Virus record (IMG/VR): IMGVR_UViG_3300012665_000884
Reading direction: 5' to 3' (one strand)
From: an uncultured virus (IMG/VR IMGVR_UViG_3300012665_000884)
Lineage: Duplodnaviria; Heunggongvirae; Uroviricota; Caudoviricetes
DNA length: 38,890 nt
Notes under the pieces: generated by a model
Database searches by the model: none
What the model was told of the DNA's origin: nothing
What the model saw: the letters and a program-made list of their open reading frames with translations, nothing else
Translations under genes and position numbers: made by a program
Part shown: in pieces, positions 16,443 through 38,890 of the stretch
Position numbering within the stretch: the first letter of the stretch is position 1
How the letters are laid out: every line of letters begins with the position of its first letter

Positions 16443-16503
16443 GTTGTTTGTTTACAACATATACGAAAAAAAGATTGACATTAGCATCGTTCTATTGTAA
16501 AAT
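16443..16503 (+). promoter_or_regulatory. Promoter with upstream GTTG-N8-CAAC site
   Basis: GTTGtttgtttaCAAC 16443-16458, TTGACA 16475, TAAAAT 16498. Confidence 0.75.
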
Positions 16504-16539: not shown

Positions 16540-16613
16540 TGGGGCATTGTGTAGTGGTAGCACAACGGTCTTTGAAGCCGTTAGTACTGGTTCGATTCCA
16601 GTTGCCCCTGCCA
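16540..16613 (+). tRNA. tRNA-Gln(TTG)
   Basis: Cloverleaf; ACGGT-ctTTGaa-GCCGT; encoded CCA. Confidence 0.92.
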
Positions 16614-16689
16614 TATGAAAACACATTAGTCGGTCATGCCTTGGCTGGGTAAAGATTGGCAAACCAATCGCTAGTGTGTTTCCATATGG
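16611..16689 (+). ncRNA. Inter-tRNA stem cassette A (putative three-way-junction RNA)
   Basis: CCATATGAAAACACATTAG pairs with CTAGTGTGTTTCCATATGG; internal hairpins CGGTCA/TGGCTG and GATTGG/CCAATC. Confidence 0.6.
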
Positions 16690-16782
16690 AGAGTAATGCA
16701 GGTGGGATGGTCCGCCGACGTGCCTTGAAAACACGGTTCTGCTGAATAAGTGGATGGGGTTCGACTCCTCTGCTCTCCGCCA
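16688..16782 (+). tRNA. tRNA-Ser(TGA), 8/4-type
   Basis: 8-bp acceptor GGAGAGTA/TGCTCTCC, 4-bp T stem, long variable arm, G73, CCA. Confidence 0.85.
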
Positions 16783-16788
16783 AATAAT

Positions 16789-16878
16789 GGTGAGGTCCTA
16801 TAATGGTATTAGAGCGGATTGCTAATCCGTCGGTCGGCGAAAGTTGGCTTCTGGGTTCGAGTCCCAGTCTCACCGCCA
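16789..16878 (+). tRNA. tRNA-Ser(GCT)
   Basis: GCGGA-ttGCTaa-TCCGT; long variable arm; GCCA end. Confidence 0.92.
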
Positions 16879-16891
16879 AAGAAAGATAATT

Positions 16892-17131
16892 ATGTGGAAT
16901 ATTAAAATTGAAAATGGAATGATATTGAATGCAAGTCCAACTTTGGATGATGCAATGAAGTTCGCAAAAAGTTATAACAAGTTTGTAATCATCACCGATG
17001 GTACTACCGAGATTGTAGGCAAGTTCGGTGTTGATGCAGTTGAAGACAAGATTCTACCTGATGGTGAATCATACACTTGGACAATGCGTAGGGATGAAAC
17101 TCACCGCAGTTCAAGAAAAAAGTTAGTGTAG
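16892..17131 (+). CDS. Conserved phage hypothetical protein within the tRNA array
   Basis: MWNIKIENG...EIVGKFGVDAVEDKILPDGESYTW; stop overlaps the tRNA-Cys 5' end. Confidence 0.75.
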   Translation: MWNIKIENGMILNASPTLDDAMKFAKSYNKFVIITDGTTEIVGKFGVDAVEDKILPDGESYTWTMRRDETHRSSRKKLV

Positions 17132-17205
17132 CGGTGGCAGAGTGGTCAATTGCAACGGATTGCAAATCCGTAAAGTCGTGAGTTCAAATCTCACCCGCTA
17201 CTCCA
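17128..17205 (+). tRNA. tRNA-Cys(GCA)
   Basis: ACGGA-ttGCAaa-TCCGT; U73; CCA. Confidence 0.92.
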
Positions 17206-17275
17206 GTTGTTAAAAAACAACAAATCAAAAATATTTTGAAAAAGTTGTTGACAAAGTTTGTGGATGTGTTATACT
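17206..17275 (+). promoter_or_regulatory. Promoter with upstream GTTG-N8-CAAC site
   Basis: GTTGttaaaaaaCAAC 17206-17221, TTGACA 17248, TGtTATACT ending 17275. Confidence 0.75.
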
Positions 17276-17300
17276 TCATCCATGAGTTGAGAAATCAACA

Positions 17301-17327
17301 TGTTCTTTAAAAATTTGTAGAGTAAAT
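17301..17327 (+). promoter_or_regulatory. boxA-like leader, copy 2
   Basis: TGTTCTTTAAAAATTTGTAGAGTAAAT, 26/27 identical to 16510-16536. Confidence 0.65.
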
Positions 17328-17402
17328 GCACGATTCGTCTATCGGTTAGGACGCTGCCCTTTCAAGGCGGAAAGACGAGTTCGATTCTCGTATCGTGTAC
17401 CA
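17328..17402 (+). tRNA. tRNA-Glu(TTC)
   Basis: CTGCC-ctTTCaa-GGCGG; CCA. Confidence 0.92.
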
Positions 17403-17641
17403 TATTAAATTATATTAGGTTATCAATGCCAGTAGGTAACATAGCATCGTGATGTACACTGCCGAGTGTGCCGTGTCTATGTTACATGAAAGATGGAAAC
17501 GAAGTCTAAGGACGGATACTGTAAATCACGCTGGGTAAGTTGATGCGTAATGTGGTTGACAAACAAATCCATGGACGGCATGGTAGGGCAGTTTCAAAGC
17601 TGTTATTTTTGTCAAACATCCTAGTGTAATTTAATATGGTA
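17398..17641 (+). ncRNA. Inter-tRNA stem cassette B (about 240-nt structured RNA)
   Basis: 22-bp closing stem TACCATATTAAATTATATTAGG/CCTAGTGTAATTTAATATGGTA with multiple internal helices. Confidence 0.7.
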
Positions 17642-17645
17642 GAAT

Positions 17646-17720
17646 GCCTTGATAGCATAAAGGTAGTGCCGTCAACTCATAATTGATATGGTACTGGTTC
17701 GAATCCAGTTCAAGGCACCA
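17646..17720 (+). tRNA. tRNA-Met/Ile2(CAT)
   Basis: GTCAA-ctCATaa-TTGAT; ACCA end. Confidence 0.88.
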
Positions 17721-17724
17721 ACAT

Positions 17725-17798
17725 GGGGGTATAACTTAGTGGTAAAGTGTCTGGCTTTTAACCAGAGAACCAGAGTTCAATTCTCTGTGCCCCTACCA
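17725..17798 (+). tRNA. tRNA-Lys(TTT)
   Basis: TCTGG-ctTTTaa-CCAGA. Confidence 0.92.
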
Positions 17799-17810
17799 TA
17801 TAATAGTTTT

Positions 17811-17896
17811 GGAGAACGAGAAGCATTGGCGACTTCAGGTGACTGTAAATCATCCACCTTCGGGTATACGGGGTTCGATTCCCTGGTTCTCCACCA
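17811..17896 (+). tRNA. tRNA-Tyr(GTA)
   Basis: GGTGA-ctGTAaa-TCATC; variable arm; ACCA end. Confidence 0.9.
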
Positions 17897-17901
17897 AATT
17901 T

Positions 17902-17976
17902 AGTCTCAAAGTGTTCATGGACGCACATCAGCCTGTCACGCTGAAAGAAGGGGATCGTTACCCCTTGGGACTGCCA
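17902..17976 (+). tRNA. tRNA-Asp(GTC)
   Basis: TCAGC-ctGTCac-GCTGA; atypical T-loop ATCGTTA; GCCA end. Confidence 0.88.
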
Positions 17977-17983
17977 AGTTTAT

Positions 17984-18062
17984 TCCGGAAAATCCAAGCA
18001 TGGTGCAAGGACTTGACTGTTAATCAATGATTAGGTGGGTTCGATCCCCACATCCGGAGCCA
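17984..18062 (+). tRNA. tRNA-Asn(GTT)
   Basis: TTGA-ctGTTaa-TCAA; GCCA end. Confidence 0.9.
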
Positions 18063-18066
18063 ACAT

Positions 18067-18143
18067 GCCCTCTTACTCCAATTGGTAGAGAGGACGGCCT
18101 TAGAAGCCGTAAAGTCTGAGTTCGAATCTCAGAGAGGGCACCA
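18067..18143 (+). tRNA. tRNA-Leu(TAG), short variable loop
   Basis: ACGGC-ctTAGaa-GCCGT; 5-nt variable region. Confidence 0.88.
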
Positions 18144-18149
18144 GAGCCT

Positions 18150-18190
18150 CGCCTTGACTGATGGCGTATAAAAGGATAAGTAATCAGTTA
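18150..18190 (+). ncRNA. Putative H-type pseudoknot in a tRNA spacer
   Basis: CGCC/GGCG stem; loop TGACTGAT pairs with ATCAGTTA (18183-18190). Confidence 0.4.
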
Positions 18191-18193
18191 TTT

Positions 18194-18268
18194 GGGCTGT
18201 TAGTGATAATGGTAGCACATGTGCTTTGCAAGCATGAAGCAGGAGTTCGATTCTCCTACGGTCCACCA
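18194..18268 (+). tRNA. tRNA-Ala(TGC)
   Basis: TGTGC-ttTGCaa-GCATG; G3.U70. Confidence 0.92.
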
Positions 18269-18274
18269 AATTCT

Positions 18275-18323
18275 GTAATGATGCGATCCACTCAGTTCAT
18301 TCTGTTTGCAGTAACATCATTAC
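18275..18323 (+). ncRNA. Small stem-closed element in a tRNA spacer
   Basis: Perfect 9-bp GTAATGATG/CATCATTAC enclosing 31 nt. Confidence 0.35.
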
Positions 18324-18327
18324 TTTT

Positions 18328-18401
18328 GCCCTGTTAGTTTAGTGGTAGAGCACCGGTTTTGTAATCCGGGAACGGCAGTTCGATTCTGTCACGGGGCACC
18401 A
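18328..18401 (+). tRNA. tRNA-Thr(TGT)
   Basis: CCGGt-ttTGTaa-tCCGG; ACCA end. Confidence 0.9.
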
Positions 18402-18407
18402 AGTTTT

Positions 18408-18483
18408 CTCTCTAAAGTGTTATCTGGTTGCATCCGCGGTTTGGGGCCGTGTGGTCTAGGTTCAAATCCTAGTAGGGAGACCA
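18408..18483 (+). tRNA. tRNA-Pro(TGG)
   Basis: CGCGG-ttTGGgg-CCGTG; C1-G72; A73. Confidence 0.9.
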
Positions 18484-18510
18484 ATTATAGTAGATTATAG
18501 TAGATTATAG
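18484..18510. repeat. 10-bp tandem repeat, 2.7 copies
   Basis: ATTATAGTAG ATTATAGTAG ATTATAG. Confidence 0.85.
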
Positions 18511-18582
18511 CGGGTAGGGCGGTCACCACACCGGTCTCATAAGCCAGGTGCATCGGCAGTTCGAATCTGTCACCCGCTTCCA
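18509..18582 (+). tRNA. Atypical tRNA-Met(CAT)
   Basis: AGCGGGT/ACCCGCT acceptor, loop ctCATaa, normal T arm; short D arm, bulged anticodon stem, U73. Confidence 0.7.
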
Positions 18583-18587
18583 ATTTT

Positions 18588-18663
18588 GGTGATATAGTTC
18601 AATTGGTAGAACACCACCTTCATACGGTGACTGTTGGGAGTTCAAGTCTCTCTATCACCACCA
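18588..18663 (+). tRNA. tRNA-Met/Ile2(CAT)
   Basis: CACC-ttCATac-GGTG; ACCA end. Confidence 0.85.
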
Positions 18664-18668
18664 ATTAT

Positions 18669-18743
18669 GCAGTAATGGTTGGGTAGGGGCGTAGGCTCCG
18701 CATTCTAGATTCCCGCAAAGGTTCGAGTCCTTTGGCTGCACCA
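18669..18743 (+). ncRNA. tRNA-like RNA lacking canonical D and anticodon arms
   Basis: Acceptor GCAGTaA/TgGCTGC, perfect T arm AAAGG-TTCGAGT-CCTTT, ACCA end; middle does not form a cloverleaf. Confidence 0.65.
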
Positions 18744-18749
18744 AATAAT

Positions 18750-18824
18750 GGGCGATTCGTATAGTGAATAATACACGAGGCTACGAACCTTGAAACAGGA
18801 GTTTGATTCTCTTATTGCCCTCCA
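18750..18824 (+). tRNA. tRNA-Arg(ACG)
   Basis: CGAGG-ctACGaa-CCTTG. Confidence 0.88.
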
Positions 18825-18829
18825 AATTT

Positions 18830-18903
18830 ACCTGGTTAGTTAAATGGTATAACGGAGGCTTGATAAGCCTTTATTACAAGTTCAATTCTTGTACCAGGTA
18901 CCA
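18830..18903 (+). tRNA. tRNA-Ile(GAT)
   Basis: GAGGC-ttGATaa-GCCTT. Confidence 0.9.
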
Positions 18904-18908
18904 AATAT

Positions 18909-18982
18909 ATCTCGTTGGTGTAATGGTAGCACAAGAAACTCCAAATCTCTTGGCGGGAGTTCGATTCTCTCACGGGATACCA
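18909..18982 (+). tRNA. tRNA-Trp(CCA)
   Basis: AGAaA-ctCCAaa-TcTCT; CCA end. Confidence 0.88.
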
Positions 18983-19004
18983 GTTCGTTAGAAAAAGGAA
19001 TAAT

Positions 19005-19475
19005 ATGTACAACGAAAAAATTGACTTGGAAGAAGTGAAAGCATACGTAGAAAATTGTGGTCCAGATACCAAAATTTATCTGGGTTGCGATTCTGAGAAA
19101 GTTAAGGTAAGAGGTGATTGGTATGCTGATTACATTATCGCCATCGTTGTGCATATTGACGGTAAACATGGTTGCAAAATCTTTGGTCAAATTACCAGAG
19201 AACGAGACTATGAAAAACAACGCAACAAGCCTAGAATGCGATTGATGAATGAAGTGTATAAAGTGGCTGATATGTACCTGCAATTATCGGAAATGATTGC
19301 GAATGATATTGAAGTTCATCTTGACATTAACCCTAACCAAATGTATAATTCTAGTATTGTTGTTAACGAAGCGGTAGGATATATAAAGGGTATGTGTAAC
19401 GTAGTGCCTTTGGTTAAGCCAAATGCATTCGCCGCTTCTTACGCCGCAGATAGATTGAAAAGTTTAGCGGCTTAG
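19005..19475 (+). CDS. RNase H-like YkuK (DUF458) family protein
   Basis: KIYLGCDS, IAIVVH...GCKIF, RLMNEV, EVHLDIN, VKPNAFAASYAADR. Confidence 0.85.
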   Translation: MYNEKIDLEEVKAYVENCGPDTKIYLGCDSEKVKVRGDWYADYIIAIVVHIDGKHGCKIFGQITRERDYEKQRNKPRMRLMNEVYKVADMYLQLSEMIANDIEVHLDINPNQMYNSSIVVNEAVGYIKGMCNVVPLVKPNAFAASYAADRLKSLAA

Positions 19476-19515
19476 ACGCCGCACCCCGATGCCCATATCG
19501 TTAAATGGGCAAGTT

Positions 19516-19589
19516 GCGGGATTAGTTTAGTGGTAAAACGTCATCCTTCCAAGTTGAAGTTGCGAGTTCGATTCTCGCATCCCGCTCCA
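19516..19589 (+). tRNA. tRNA-Gly(TCC)
   Basis: GCGGGAT/ATCCCGC; loop ctTCCaa; U73. Confidence 0.92.
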
Positions 19590-19665
19590 TATAAAAACAC
19601 ACTTGACTAAATTCGGGTTCATCCGTGTGACTTAGTTGTTCCTATATTGAGTGTGTTTTTATATG
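19588..19665 (+). ncRNA. Inter-tRNA stem cassette C
   Basis: CATATAAAAACACACTT/GAGTGTGTTTTTATATG (17 bp); internal GACTAA/TTAGTT and CGGG-ttca-TCCG. Confidence 0.6.
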
Positions 19666-19738
19666 CGGGATTGATGTAATGGTTGCCTGTGACCTTGCCA
19701 AGGTTATCGTAGGAGTTCGATTCTCCTATCCCGCTCCA
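19665..19738 (+). tRNA. tRNA-Gly(GCC)
   Basis: TGACC-ttGCCaa-GGTTA; U73. Confidence 0.92.
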
Positions 19739-19744
19739 GTTTAT

Positions 19745-19819
19745 GGTGTCTATAGTTTAGTGGTAAAACCACGGGTTGTGATTCCGTTATCACGGGTTCA
19801 ATTCCCGTTAGACACCCCA
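19745..19819 (+). tRNA. tRNA-His(GTG)
   Basis: ACGGG-ttGTGat-TCCGT; G-1:C73. Confidence 0.92.
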
Positions 19820-19824
19820 ATTAT

Positions 19825-19899
19825 GCCTTGTTAACTCAGCGGTAGAGTGTCTCCCTTACAAGGAGAAGGTCGGCGGTTCGATCCCGTCACAAGGTACCA
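19825..19899 (+). tRNA. tRNA-Val(TAC)
   Basis: TCTCC-ctTACaa-GGAGA. Confidence 0.93.
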
Positions 19900-19904
19900 A
19901 TTAT

Positions 19905-19980
19905 GCAACTTTAGCTGATGTGGTCATAGCGGTGGTTTGAAGAACCATTGAAAGAGGTTCGATTCCTCTAGGTTGCACCA
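19905..19980 (+). tRNA. tRNA-Phe(GAA)
   Basis: GTGGT-ttGAAga-ACCAT. Confidence 0.9.
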
Positions 19981-20107
19981 TATAAAAACATTCTGAGTAA
20001 CTACGGTGGATAAACAGTAAACTTACAAACGCCGGCCAATGTAAGAACCTGCCATGAAGTAGGGTTACCAAGAGATTCAAGGACTCGGCAGAATGTTTCT
20101 ATATGGT
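19977..20107 (+). ncRNA. Inter-tRNA stem cassette D (multi-junction RNA)
   Basis: ACCATATAAAAACATTCTG/CAGAATGTTTCTATATGGT; internal GTAAC/GTTAC, CTTACA/TGTAAG, CCTGC/GTAGG. Confidence 0.65.
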
Positions 20108-20179
20108 TTGTAAACTTTGATGGCGAAGTACCCGGCTCTTACCCGGACTAACAGAGTTCGATTCTCTGACAAACCACCA
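20105..20179 (+). tRNA. tRNA-Lys(CTT)
   Basis: CCGG-ctCTTac-CCGG; ACCA end. Confidence 0.88.
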
Positions 20180-20181
20180 GA

Positions 20182-20327
20182 TTTTGAGATAGACGTTGAG
20201 GTTGAGTCCCTTGTTCGCTAGTGCCCTATTCTTGAGCATGACACACCAGTAGCAGTTCAAGGTTGTTAAACTCCCTCAAACGAGACAAGCCAATGAGTCC
20301 TTAAGAAAGATAGTTGGTCTCTCAAAA
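20182..20327 (+). ncRNA. Putative structured ncRNA (about 145 nt)
   Basis: TTTTGAGA/TCTCAAAA closing stem; TTGAGG/CCTCAA, GAGT/ACTC and CTTGAGC/GTTCAAG nested helices; no ORF. Confidence 0.5.
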
Positions 20328-20352
20328 ACCTATTAGTACTTTTATCTTATAT

Positions 20353-38637: not shown

Positions 38638-38890
38638 CAATGATAGTAAACTTGGTATAAGAAAAGTATTCTGGACGGGGGTGCGAATCCCCCCAGGTCC
38701 ACCATAAACATATTGGAGATATTATGACAACAGAAGAATATTGGAAATGGATGCGTGAAAACTTCCAGTAATGTGTTTATGATGGGCCTGCATAGTTTCG
38801 ACAGAGTAACAAGTACGATATTCGGCTATCCGTCAGAGTTGACGTAAACACTAAATCAAAATAAATGCAAATGACGAAAGTTACGCATTG
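38638..38890 (+). ncRNA. ssrA: Circularly permuted (two-piece) tmRNA, 3'-truncated by the window
   Basis: Acceptor piece (GGGGG-TGCGAAT-CCCCC-CAGGTCC-ACCA, ends 38704) precedes the coding piece starting GGGCCTG...TTCGAC at 38784; G3.U70; tag ANDESYAL from 38867. Confidence 0.92.
38724..38771 (+). CDS. Putative 15-aa mini-ORF inside the tmRNA intervening segment
   Basis: GGAG SD at 38715-38718; MTTEEYWKWMRENFQ-stop. Confidence 0.4.
   Translation: MTTEEYWKWMRENFQ

Follow-up and report, generated by a model that had tools for sequence, protein, structure and literature searches.

The window analysed here is a stretch of 38,890 nucleotides from an uncultured virus (IMG/VR record IMGVR_UViG_3300012665_000884), and contains 26 tRNA genes, called by ARAGORN on the + strand between positions 16540 and 21197. 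Some spacers of this array are filled with non-tRNA sequence that is closed by a long stem, the first arm of which begins on the 3' CCA of the preceding tRNA. Four such elements, cassettes A, B, C and D, are the subject of this report. The source phage is uncultured, T4-like and from freshwater. Among the proteins of the window, Pfam recognises T4 RNase H, PhoH, a SegE-type GIY-YIG nuclease, a Clp protease, 2OG-Fe(II) oxygenases and a DNA ligase domain. There is no close cultured phage, megablast of the array returning two tRNA-sized matches only, and complete relatives are 165–171 kb long with terminal repeats. Promoter-like sites at 16475, 17248, 19321 and 20352 divide the array into units.

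Stems in four inter-tRNA spacers had been proposed in an earlier note, made from the letters of this DNA alone, and arm complementarity places all four where that note had put them. The 5' arms of cassettes A, B, C and D start on the CCA of the ARAGORN-called tRNAs Gln, Glu, Gly(tcc) and Phe, respectively. Cassettes A, C and D have a common handle, with a 5' arm CCATAT(A/G)AAAACA(C/T)... and a 3' arm ...(G/A)TGTTT(C/T)(T/C)ATATG(G/C). In the stem of A, position 7 is G-C, position 8 is an A.C mismatch and position 16 is U.G; the mismatch at position 8 is common to A and D, as had been claimed. The same note had counted cassette B as a member of this family. Its arms (17398-17419 and 17620-17641, 22 nt, 91% complementary) have their own sequence and are unmatched by a covariance model of the handle, so that B shares the architecture only; its stem ends 4–6 nt before tRNA-Met. 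The covariance model scores the other three higher on the + than on the - strand (C, 57.8 vs 40.8 bits; A, 57.6 vs 37.6; D, 43.7 vs 38.9). The claim that the terminal G or GG of a cassette is also the start of the next RNA holds for C (19665), for D (20105) and for A, where the next RNA is tRNA-like, but it is not a rule in relatives, several of which have ...ATATGG followed by a 4–7 nt spacer of its own before the next tRNA. No Rfam 15 family other than tRNA and transfer-messenger RNA (tmRNA) covers the cassettes, either at the gathering score or at E up to 1, and no cassette is among the terminator-like sites of the window. The positions of the cassettes and of the features around them are given in Table 1.

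Table 1. Positions of the cassettes and associated features in the window.
Feature	Positions	Strand	Description
Cassette A, canonical handle	16611..16689	+	19 stem positions with one A.C and one U.G; 44-nt interior
Cassette B, separate subfamily	17398..17641	+	20-22 bp stem flush with CCA; interior ~200 nt
Cassette C, canonical handle, position 8 paired (A-U)	19587..19666	+	16-nt arms, 100% complementary
Cassette D, canonical handle, A.C at position 8	19978..20106	+	19-nt arms, 95% complementary
Sigma-70-like promoter, 11/12	16475..16503	+	Upstream of tRNA-Gln, first tRNA of the array
tRNA-Gln(ttg)	16540..16613	+	CCA 16611-16613 forms stem positions 1-3 of cassette A
tRNA-like RNA, long-variable-arm type, loop resembling a UGA anticodon	16688..16785	+	Starts on the terminal GG of cassette A
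Sigma-70-like promoter, 11/12	17248..17275	+	Upstream of tRNA-Glu
tRNA-Glu(ttc)	17328..17402	+	Precedes cassette B
DUF458/YkuK-like RNase H-fold protein, inside the array	19005..19475	+	
Sigma-70-like promoter, 12/12	19321..19349	+	Upstream of tRNA-Gly(tcc)
tRNA-Gly(tcc)	19516..19589	+	Precedes cassette C
tRNA-Gly(gcc)	19665..19738	+	G1 closes the cassette C stem
tRNA-Phe(gaa)	19905..19980	+	Precedes cassette D
tRNA-Lys(ctt)	20105..20179	+	G1 and G2 close the cassette D stem
Intervening segment of permuted tmRNA	38702..38785	+	Hairpin directly after the CCA of the acceptor piece

The closing stem could be examined position by position in 101 distinct cassettes, of which 61 were selected by the motif and 40, independently of the motif, by way of arrays located with the DUF458 protein. 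Positions 1–18 pair, with background reached from position 19–20, and the pairing seen at positions 5–18 was never equalled when the partners were shuffled (0 of 2000 at each position). The CCA supplies the first three positions of a helix that is AU-rich and 17–18 bp long. Pair types vary freely at several positions: those found at position 7 are U-A (19), A-U (12) and G-C (7), at position 8 G-C (12), U-A (11), A.C (6) and A-U (6), and at position 14 C-G (17), U.G (8), U-A (8) and G-C (4). An alignment of 57 cassettes, one row of which (L169; related loci are cited by such numbers) belongs to a different hairpin class and aligned poorly, has 93.1% of its cells paired and 9 of 18 pairs changed on both sides. 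Its covariation score is 0.170, against 0.071 after shuffling. None of 500 shuffles reached any of these measures, and registers slid out of place pair at 29–63%.

The covariance check that the earlier note had called for thus found strong covariation in the stem, and the sense strand is favoured by the model scores and by the count of wobble pairs. Over positions 4–18 without position 8, G.U or U.G occurs 105 times on the tRNA-sense strand and A.C or C.A 12 times. At the level of sequence comparison, the helix is shown to be anchored on the CCA, and it is shown to be under selection as RNA on the sense strand because G.U far outnumbers A.C on the transcribed strand and the 18-bp length is held by compensatory change. 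Other parts of the helix hardly vary. Positions 3–6, 9, 10, 13 and 17 have one pair type in 86–100% of the 101 cassettes, U.G is found at position 16 in 58, and A.C at position 8, a feature of the dominant subfamily, in 54. In diverged stems position 8 is C.C (L126, one cassette) or U.U (L128/L129 and L164, two cassettes). The smallest member, L010, is a plain hairpin of 43 nt, and the stem alone can therefore be the unit.

How widespread is the handle? In IMG/VR, at least 121 loci match the 14-base 5' arm. Among the matches listed, the complementary arm follows at a distance of 40–150 nt in most of the 5'-arm loci, again with A.C at position 8 and a U.G at position 16; the 7 loci with both arms exact are all inside tRNA arrays. 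The pattern of both arms (28 fixed bases, gap 35–65) is present in at least 122 IMG/VR viral contigs, and in 596 Gb of bacterial and archaeal genomes the same pattern occurs in a single 1.5-kb contig of a metagenome-assembled genome. Judged from these scans, the handle is phage-specific and common. It is not present in rnaC and rnaD of the array of T4 itself, and none of the 6 records found by blastn with cassette C (E up to 10) covers both arms. A degenerate arm pattern gives 0–3 copies per record in five large records (four rated complete), and every cassette copy sits in a tRNA array.

The matches also bear on the anchoring at the tRNA end. Among the matches listed, 68 of 94 strand-instances have a motif whose CCA coincides, at offset 0, with the 3' CCA of a called tRNA, and in 29 of those 68 another tRNA begins on the terminal GG. 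Of the 26 misses, about 19 are opposite-strand readings of the same near-palindromic places. Shuffling lowers the number of distinct long spacers in related arrays that have a closing stem of at least 12 bp flush with the CCA from 49 to 3 of 286. Nearly all strong stems of the motif-unbiased set have a 5' offset of 0; the distance from the helix to the next tRNA varies from 0 to 12 nt. At least one match to the covariance model at E up to 0.01 was found in 50 of 80 loci selected by DUF458, which themselves contributed 12 of the rows from which the model was built. No published description was found in open-access papers or bioRxiv, which leaves room for one in a subscription journal; the CCA-anchored handle appears to be undescribed.

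What the handle encloses is highly diverse. The 96 distinct cassettes with identical 14-nt arms, among the matches listed, fall into 69 unrelated interior clusters, which bears out the proposal of diverse interiors behind a shared handle. The enclosed sequence ranges from a 5-nt loop to about 200 nt, and its GC content is 0.495 vs 0.391 for the window. Folding of the interiors is a little better than that of their shuffles, with a mean z of -0.43 and values below -1 in 24 of 96. The interior of D is a conserved multi-stem RNA that is also found in L008, L095, L041 and L135/136, and 13 of its 36 pairs have a compensatory change among five sequences only. The interior of B has kin in L152/154, L185, L071, L030, L194 and L168, always after tRNA-Glu and with an arm consensus of their own. 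The interior of C recurs in L130 at a Lys->Tyr junction, and that of A has no relative among the loci fetched. The conservation of D and B and the compensatory changes of D agree with the idea that interiors are structured; a 15-codon open reading frame of the tmRNA segment, considered below, is not kept. Two readings of the interiors were set aside. As antisense or guide RNAs, the interiors of A–D gave a best E of 0.16 against the rest of the window, which is not above chance. As decoys of anticodon loops, the matching cassettes show no enrichment of the U33-anticodon-A37 words of Lys, Glu and Gln (the counts for Lys, for instance, are 2 of 41 behind that tRNA vs 3 of 35 behind others).

Between tRNAs of relatives there are also closing stems of at least two other families, both of which start 1–4 nt after the CCA. 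The arms of one are GTTTTAGGATNC ... GNATCCTGTTG and those of the other AGTTTTGTAAGTGT ... ACTTACAAATT. Examples are at L128/L129 Ile->Trp, L147 Asn->Thr and Ala->Leu, L124 Thr->Pro and L173 His->Phe.

The arrays are syntenic in relatives with a 74–97% identical DUF458 protein, and this made it possible to compare the occupancy of the same junctions, as the earlier note had suggested. The same junction may be empty or filled in close relatives. Between tRNA-Gly(tcc) and tRNA-Gly(gcc), five distinct relatives have an AT-rich 5–7 nt; the junction is filled with 75 nt in the window, 80 nt in L126, 132 nt in L124 and 155 nt in L128. The cassettes of L124 and L128 end in ...ATATGG and are followed by a normal 5-nt spacer; the insert has thus entered precisely where the old spacer met the CCA. 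The window's own spacer between Lys and Tyr, of 12 nt, resembles both ends of the L130 cassette with the middle removed. No target-site duplication was found on comparing filled with empty junctions. The Glu->Met junction of L134 is 295 nt long and holds two tandem cassettes with an odd CCA-ended RNA-like piece between them.

Cassettes also change place. Among 19 interior families with at least two members, the flanking tRNAs differ between members in 12, the upstream tRNA in 9 of these and the downstream tRNA only in 3; this agrees with the suggestion that the cassettes move among tRNA 3' ends. Arms within such families have compensatory differences (L128 vs L170, L016 vs L119). Is this transposition, or have existing cassettes been exchanged between junctions? 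Because there are only 0–3 copies per record and no recombinase was found (tyrosine recombinase PF00589 in 0 of 5 records, 4 rated complete), "mobile" most likely means, on this comparison of arrays, recombinational shuffling rather than transposition.

The explanation that we prefer, with moderate confidence, and the simplest one, is that the helix-closed insert is an excisable RNA module of the tRNA precursor that serves processing and insulation, and which would be processed by a host double-strand RNase together with RNase P and shuffled between junctions by recombination. The helix would draw the two tRNA ends together, and a double-strand-specific endonuclease, most plausibly RNase III of the host, would cut it. 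RNase P would cut at the downstream tRNA. The tRNAs would keep a short AU-rich trailer and leader, as they would from ordinary 5–7 nt spacers, and the insert, closed by its stem, would be freed as a small RNA whose ends are protected. The same logic would apply to the intervening segment of the phage's permuted tmRNA, and the explanation draws support from this layout in the permuted tmRNAs of the phage group, since an intervening segment of this kind is known to be taken out by tRNA-processing enzymes (PMC11915505). At the DNA level, modules would be gained, lost and exchanged between tRNA junctions by recombination, and identical arms would surround unrelated interiors because of this exchange. 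The cleavage, the enzymes and the function of the released RNA are what we infer here. That the nuclease would be the host's RNase III is the obvious choice, since no such enzyme is encoded by the complete relatives that were checked (RNase III family PF14622 in 0 of 3 relatives' records, 2 of them complete). Its preferences, in the passages of PMC11780869 and PMC6212723 that deal with them, include a U-G that is more frequent in the distal box and the reading of about 12 positions on each side of the cut. The near-fixed U.G at position 16 is compatible with such preferences, and is no proof of a cut by RNase III.

Several observations weigh against this explanation. RNase III substrates usually have about two full turns of helix, or 20–22 bp, and the conserved helix, at 17–18 bp (up to 22 bp in B), may fall short of this. 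A nuclease that reads structure only does not explain the near-fixed sequence of the arms, or a mismatch at position 8 that is kept or recurs with other identities. The 40 motif-unbiased cassettes had been required to have 15 of 19 positions paired, which biases their pairing fraction upward. Matches in RNA runs are contigs of relatives and carry no information on ends; in three metatranscriptome runs and one DNA run, the contigs are mostly 90–95% alike and their joints reflect other gene orders.

The placement of the cassettes is uneven as well. In the motif-unbiased counts of flush cassettes, which are of distinct sequences that include orthologous places in related phages and are inflated by shared descent, a cassette follows tRNA-Glu(ttc) in 21 of 37 contexts, tRNA-Lys(ttt) in 15 of 27 and tRNA-Gln(ttg) in 9 of 26, compared with 11 of 45 for tRNA-Leu(tag) and 79 of 1064 for any tRNA. 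The tRNAs Glu(UUC), Lys(UUU) and Gln(UUG) have in common a 2-thio modification of the wobble base, and anticodon nucleases often target them. A strong promoter-like site lies within 100 nt upstream of 45 of 159 cassette-preceding tRNAs vs 90 of 1705 others. The commonest called tRNA downstream is Met(cat), in 19 cases. The tRNA and promoter preferences are not accounted for by a processing role alone, and together with the near-fixed arms and the position-8 mismatch they leave room for a factor that recognises the sequence, or for an additional function.

Such a factor is central to an alternative that we consider unlikely, in which the handle is the binding site of a dedicated phage or host protein that stabilises, loads or delivers the interior, much as a guide is borne by its scaffold, and processing is secondary. 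This would explain why the arm sequence, beyond its pairing, is conserved around 69 unrelated interiors, why the mismatch at position 8 persists or recurs in other forms, and why the orientation of the handle is fixed relative to transcription; the arrays, moreover, often encode uncharacterised nucleic-acid proteins, DUF458 and, in some relatives, a DUF2828+DUF7788 protein. In the motif-unbiased set, however, there is free covariation at most positions, 30 of 40 cassettes have a pair at position 8, and neither protein tracks the cassettes, DUF458 being uncoupled from them in complete records and DUF2828 being confined to some records and absent from the window. TROVE is in none of the five records, and the interiors have no above-chance complementarity to the rest of the window. 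Quite unlikely, in our view, is a selfish or neutral mobile DNA hairpin, similar to a miniature inverted-repeat transposable element (MITE) or to an integron attC site, with the RNA pairing a tolerated by-product. The variable occupancy of one junction, the same interior after different tRNAs, the exact insertion between CCA and old spacer in L124 and L128, the remnant-like Lys->Tyr spacer, and an imperfect repeat with a consistent left/right difference at position 8 are all as expected of such an element. Its low copy number with all copies in arrays, the lack of target-site duplication and of a tyrosine recombinase are not, and neither are the 105 vs 12 ratio of G.U to A.C, the helix held at 18 bp and the conserved structured RNAs among the interiors.

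The promoter-proximal enrichment would fit with a hairpin in the nascent RNA that acts as an antitermination or pausing signal and allows read-through of long untranslated tRNA arrays; in the window, the tRNA before each of cassettes A, B and C is the first one behind a promoter-like site. The conserved sequence and specific orientation are in keeping with this. We nevertheless consider it very unlikely: most Lys(ttt) cassettes are deep in arrays, 3–6 nt behind another tRNA and without a promoter, cassette D is the fifth element of its promoter-defined unit, and the promoter counts are inflated by descent. A transcription signal also gives no role to loops that vary from 5 to 200 nt or to the flush pairing with the CCA. 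More boldly, the handle might be the scaffold of a phage-specific small-RNA system, in which a dedicated factor reads the near-invariant, CCA-anchored 18-bp helix with its mismatch at position 8. By means of it, phages would express, release and stabilise from their tRNA arrays small RNAs that can be swapped without limit of kind, with at least 69 unrelated interiors, and the link to Glu, Lys and Gln would reflect host takeover or the countering of tRNA-directed defence; this we put forward tentatively, as a rather doubtful proposition.

Which proteins might be involved? DUF458/YkuK is an uncharacterised clade of RNase H1-like proteins, according to the part of PMC3985635 that treats it. DUF458 is encoded in many arrays and, within 4 kb, in 13 of the motif-selected loci. 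A 364-kb record rated complete has a cassette and no DUF458, and a complete 165-kb record has DUF458 and no flush canonical cassette. On gene content DUF458 is a frequent but not obligatory neighbour of the cassettes. Other frequent genes of the arrays encode a metallophosphoesterase, HNH and GIY-YIG nucleases, a deaminase and the DUF2828+DUF7788 protein. The last of these (470–480 amino acids; L128:9745-11181, with homologues in L029, L129, L131, L169, L198 and L199) matches phrog_850 at E 5.7e-140, named 'RNA-binding protein' in PHROGs, and its gene is inside the tRNA arrays of some relatives, in places adjoining the DUF458 gene. DUF2828 was found in 3/5 and 1/5 of the records searched and not in the window. 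The protein has no sequence relative in the PDB, whether searched alone or as a profile, and a protein atlas search returned its own family only. Its AlphaFold model, made from 7 sequences, has a helical N-terminal and an alpha/beta C-terminal part at low confidence (predicted local distance difference test score 50).

The array of the window has other features of interest. The tRNA-like RNA at 16688-16785 was not called by ARAGORN and scores 30.4 bits with Rfam tRNA-Sec, below threshold; relatives have a tRNA-Ser(tga) in its place. Between tRNA-Met and tRNA-Arg(acg), 18664-18749 is tRNA-like with a T arm and a CCA end, and was also left uncalled by ARAGORN. A tRNA whose anticodon is CTA ('Pyl cta') is among the ARAGORN calls in the arrays of several relatives, and from these calls an amber-suppressor-type tRNA may exist in this phage group. 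A sub-threshold tRNA of 26 bits lies at 17984-18059, between tRNA-Asp and tRNA-Leu, where relatives have tRNA-Asn(gtt) after Asp. The 50-nt spacer after tRNA-Leu(tag), 18144-18193, has a small hairpin inside and is 81–90% identical in 33 other loci, a conservation that, by these alignments, is far above expectation for a spacer. The 150-nt non-coding stretch after tRNA-Lys(ctt), 20180-20330, is conserved in L015 (87.5%), L156 (85%), L077, L003 and L058, and probably represents one more small RNA carried by the array. At 18484-18508, the spacer that separates tRNA-Pro from tRNA-Met is a short direct repeat, ATTATAGTAG twice and then ATTAT.

The permuted tmRNA of the phage (38642-38890 by Rfam, cut by the end of the window) was said in the earlier note to carry the cassette arms around its intervening segment. 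The likeness is loose. Its stem has about 10–12 bp plus CCAU/AUGG and is bulged, with UGAU before G+1 of the coding piece. Four of five relatives' records also have a permuted tmRNA with a hairpin right after the CCA in each, and the stems of these four are unrelated in sequence. The cassette covariance model matches none of the five tmRNA intervening segments, so that the sharing of arms is not upheld. The segment contains a 15-codon open reading frame at 38725-38772 with GGAG upstream; a coding reading was rejected, as this frame is not kept in the tmRNA genes of the four relatives.

Phage tRNA arrays are usually viewed as devices for codon supply or anti-defence that consist of tRNAs only. 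Those of a large group of freshwater T4-like and jumbo phages would also hold modular, shuffled RNAs that are not tRNAs, expressed by way of a single common structure. The sequence rule, the covariance model and the 28-base pattern could together pull hundreds of unannotated phage small RNAs from metagenomes. The cassettes also raise the question of how long inserts are removed from tRNA precursors without harm to the CCA end.

The closest known systems share some of these features. Stems cut by RNase III include the stalks around 16S and 23S rRNA, the intervening sequences of 23S rRNA and the early sites of phage T7. Like them, the cassettes have a long helix formed by flanking sequence in a polycistronic stable-RNA transcript, with compensatory change, a variable loop and a U.G wobble about a turn from the base. 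Unlike them, the cassette helix is anchored on a CCA, is 17–18 bp long and near-fixed in sequence with a recurrent mismatch at position 8, and would by inferred cleavage release swappable inserts rather than one fixed RNA. The intervening sequence of permuted tmRNA, which the relevant part of PMC11915505 has as removed by tRNA-processing enzymes, likewise has a CCA end on one side and, on the other, the +1 of the mature piece that follows. The pieces that flank it, however, form one tRNA-like domain, whereas the four cassettes separate two RNAs; only 38702-38785 extends from the CCA of an acceptor piece to the +1 of a coding piece.

Correia elements and some other bacterial MITEs give transcripts that fold into hairpins cut by RNase III. 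MITEs and attC sites resemble the cassettes in having inverted repeats around a variable centre, polymorphic presence and one position that is consistently imperfect. They differ in that the cassettes have 0–3 copies per genome, all in arrays, no target duplication or recombinase, and selection on the RNA strand. An identity with MITEs was rejected on the number and location of matches and the lack of duplication at filled and empty junctions, and one with integron attC sites on the absence of PF00589 from the five records, on neighbours that are tRNA genes and on interiors that are non-coding. The closing stem of Y RNAs binds Ro60. Y RNA and YrlA combine a conserved stem of paired ends with a tRNA-like module; the cassettes have a conserved stem, and a T-loop-like motif is found in only 5 of 96 interiors. 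A Y RNA/Ro60 reading was dropped as TROVE (Ro60, PF05731) is in 0 of 5 records.

The PeSLs (promoter-early stem-loops) of T4-type phages combine a sigma-70 promoter with a terminator hairpin and flank protein genes in hyperplastic regions, as outlined in the relevant sections of PMC2839356. They too are small, repeated and conserved stem-loop modules of T4-type genomes between which recombination shuffles content. In so far as those sections describe them, they differ from the cassettes, which have no promoter or terminator in the element, have arms that enclose cargo, and sit among tRNAs. An identity was rejected as no cassette is terminator-like and the promoter-like sites are upstream of the preceding tRNA, outside the element.

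Small RNAs punctuated by tRNAs are found in other settings, such as the tRNA-linked pre-miRNA hairpins of murine gammaherpesvirus 68, the tRNA-snoRNA transcripts of plants and engineered arrays of tRNAs and guide RNAs. As in the cassettes, hairpins or small RNAs lie directly beside tRNAs, and in those systems tRNA-processing enzymes set their ends. Those systems are eukaryotic or synthetic and are not known to have a common closing helix that pairs with the CCA. The cassettes are a parallel to the engineered tRNA-spaced RNA arrays, as their natural counterpart.

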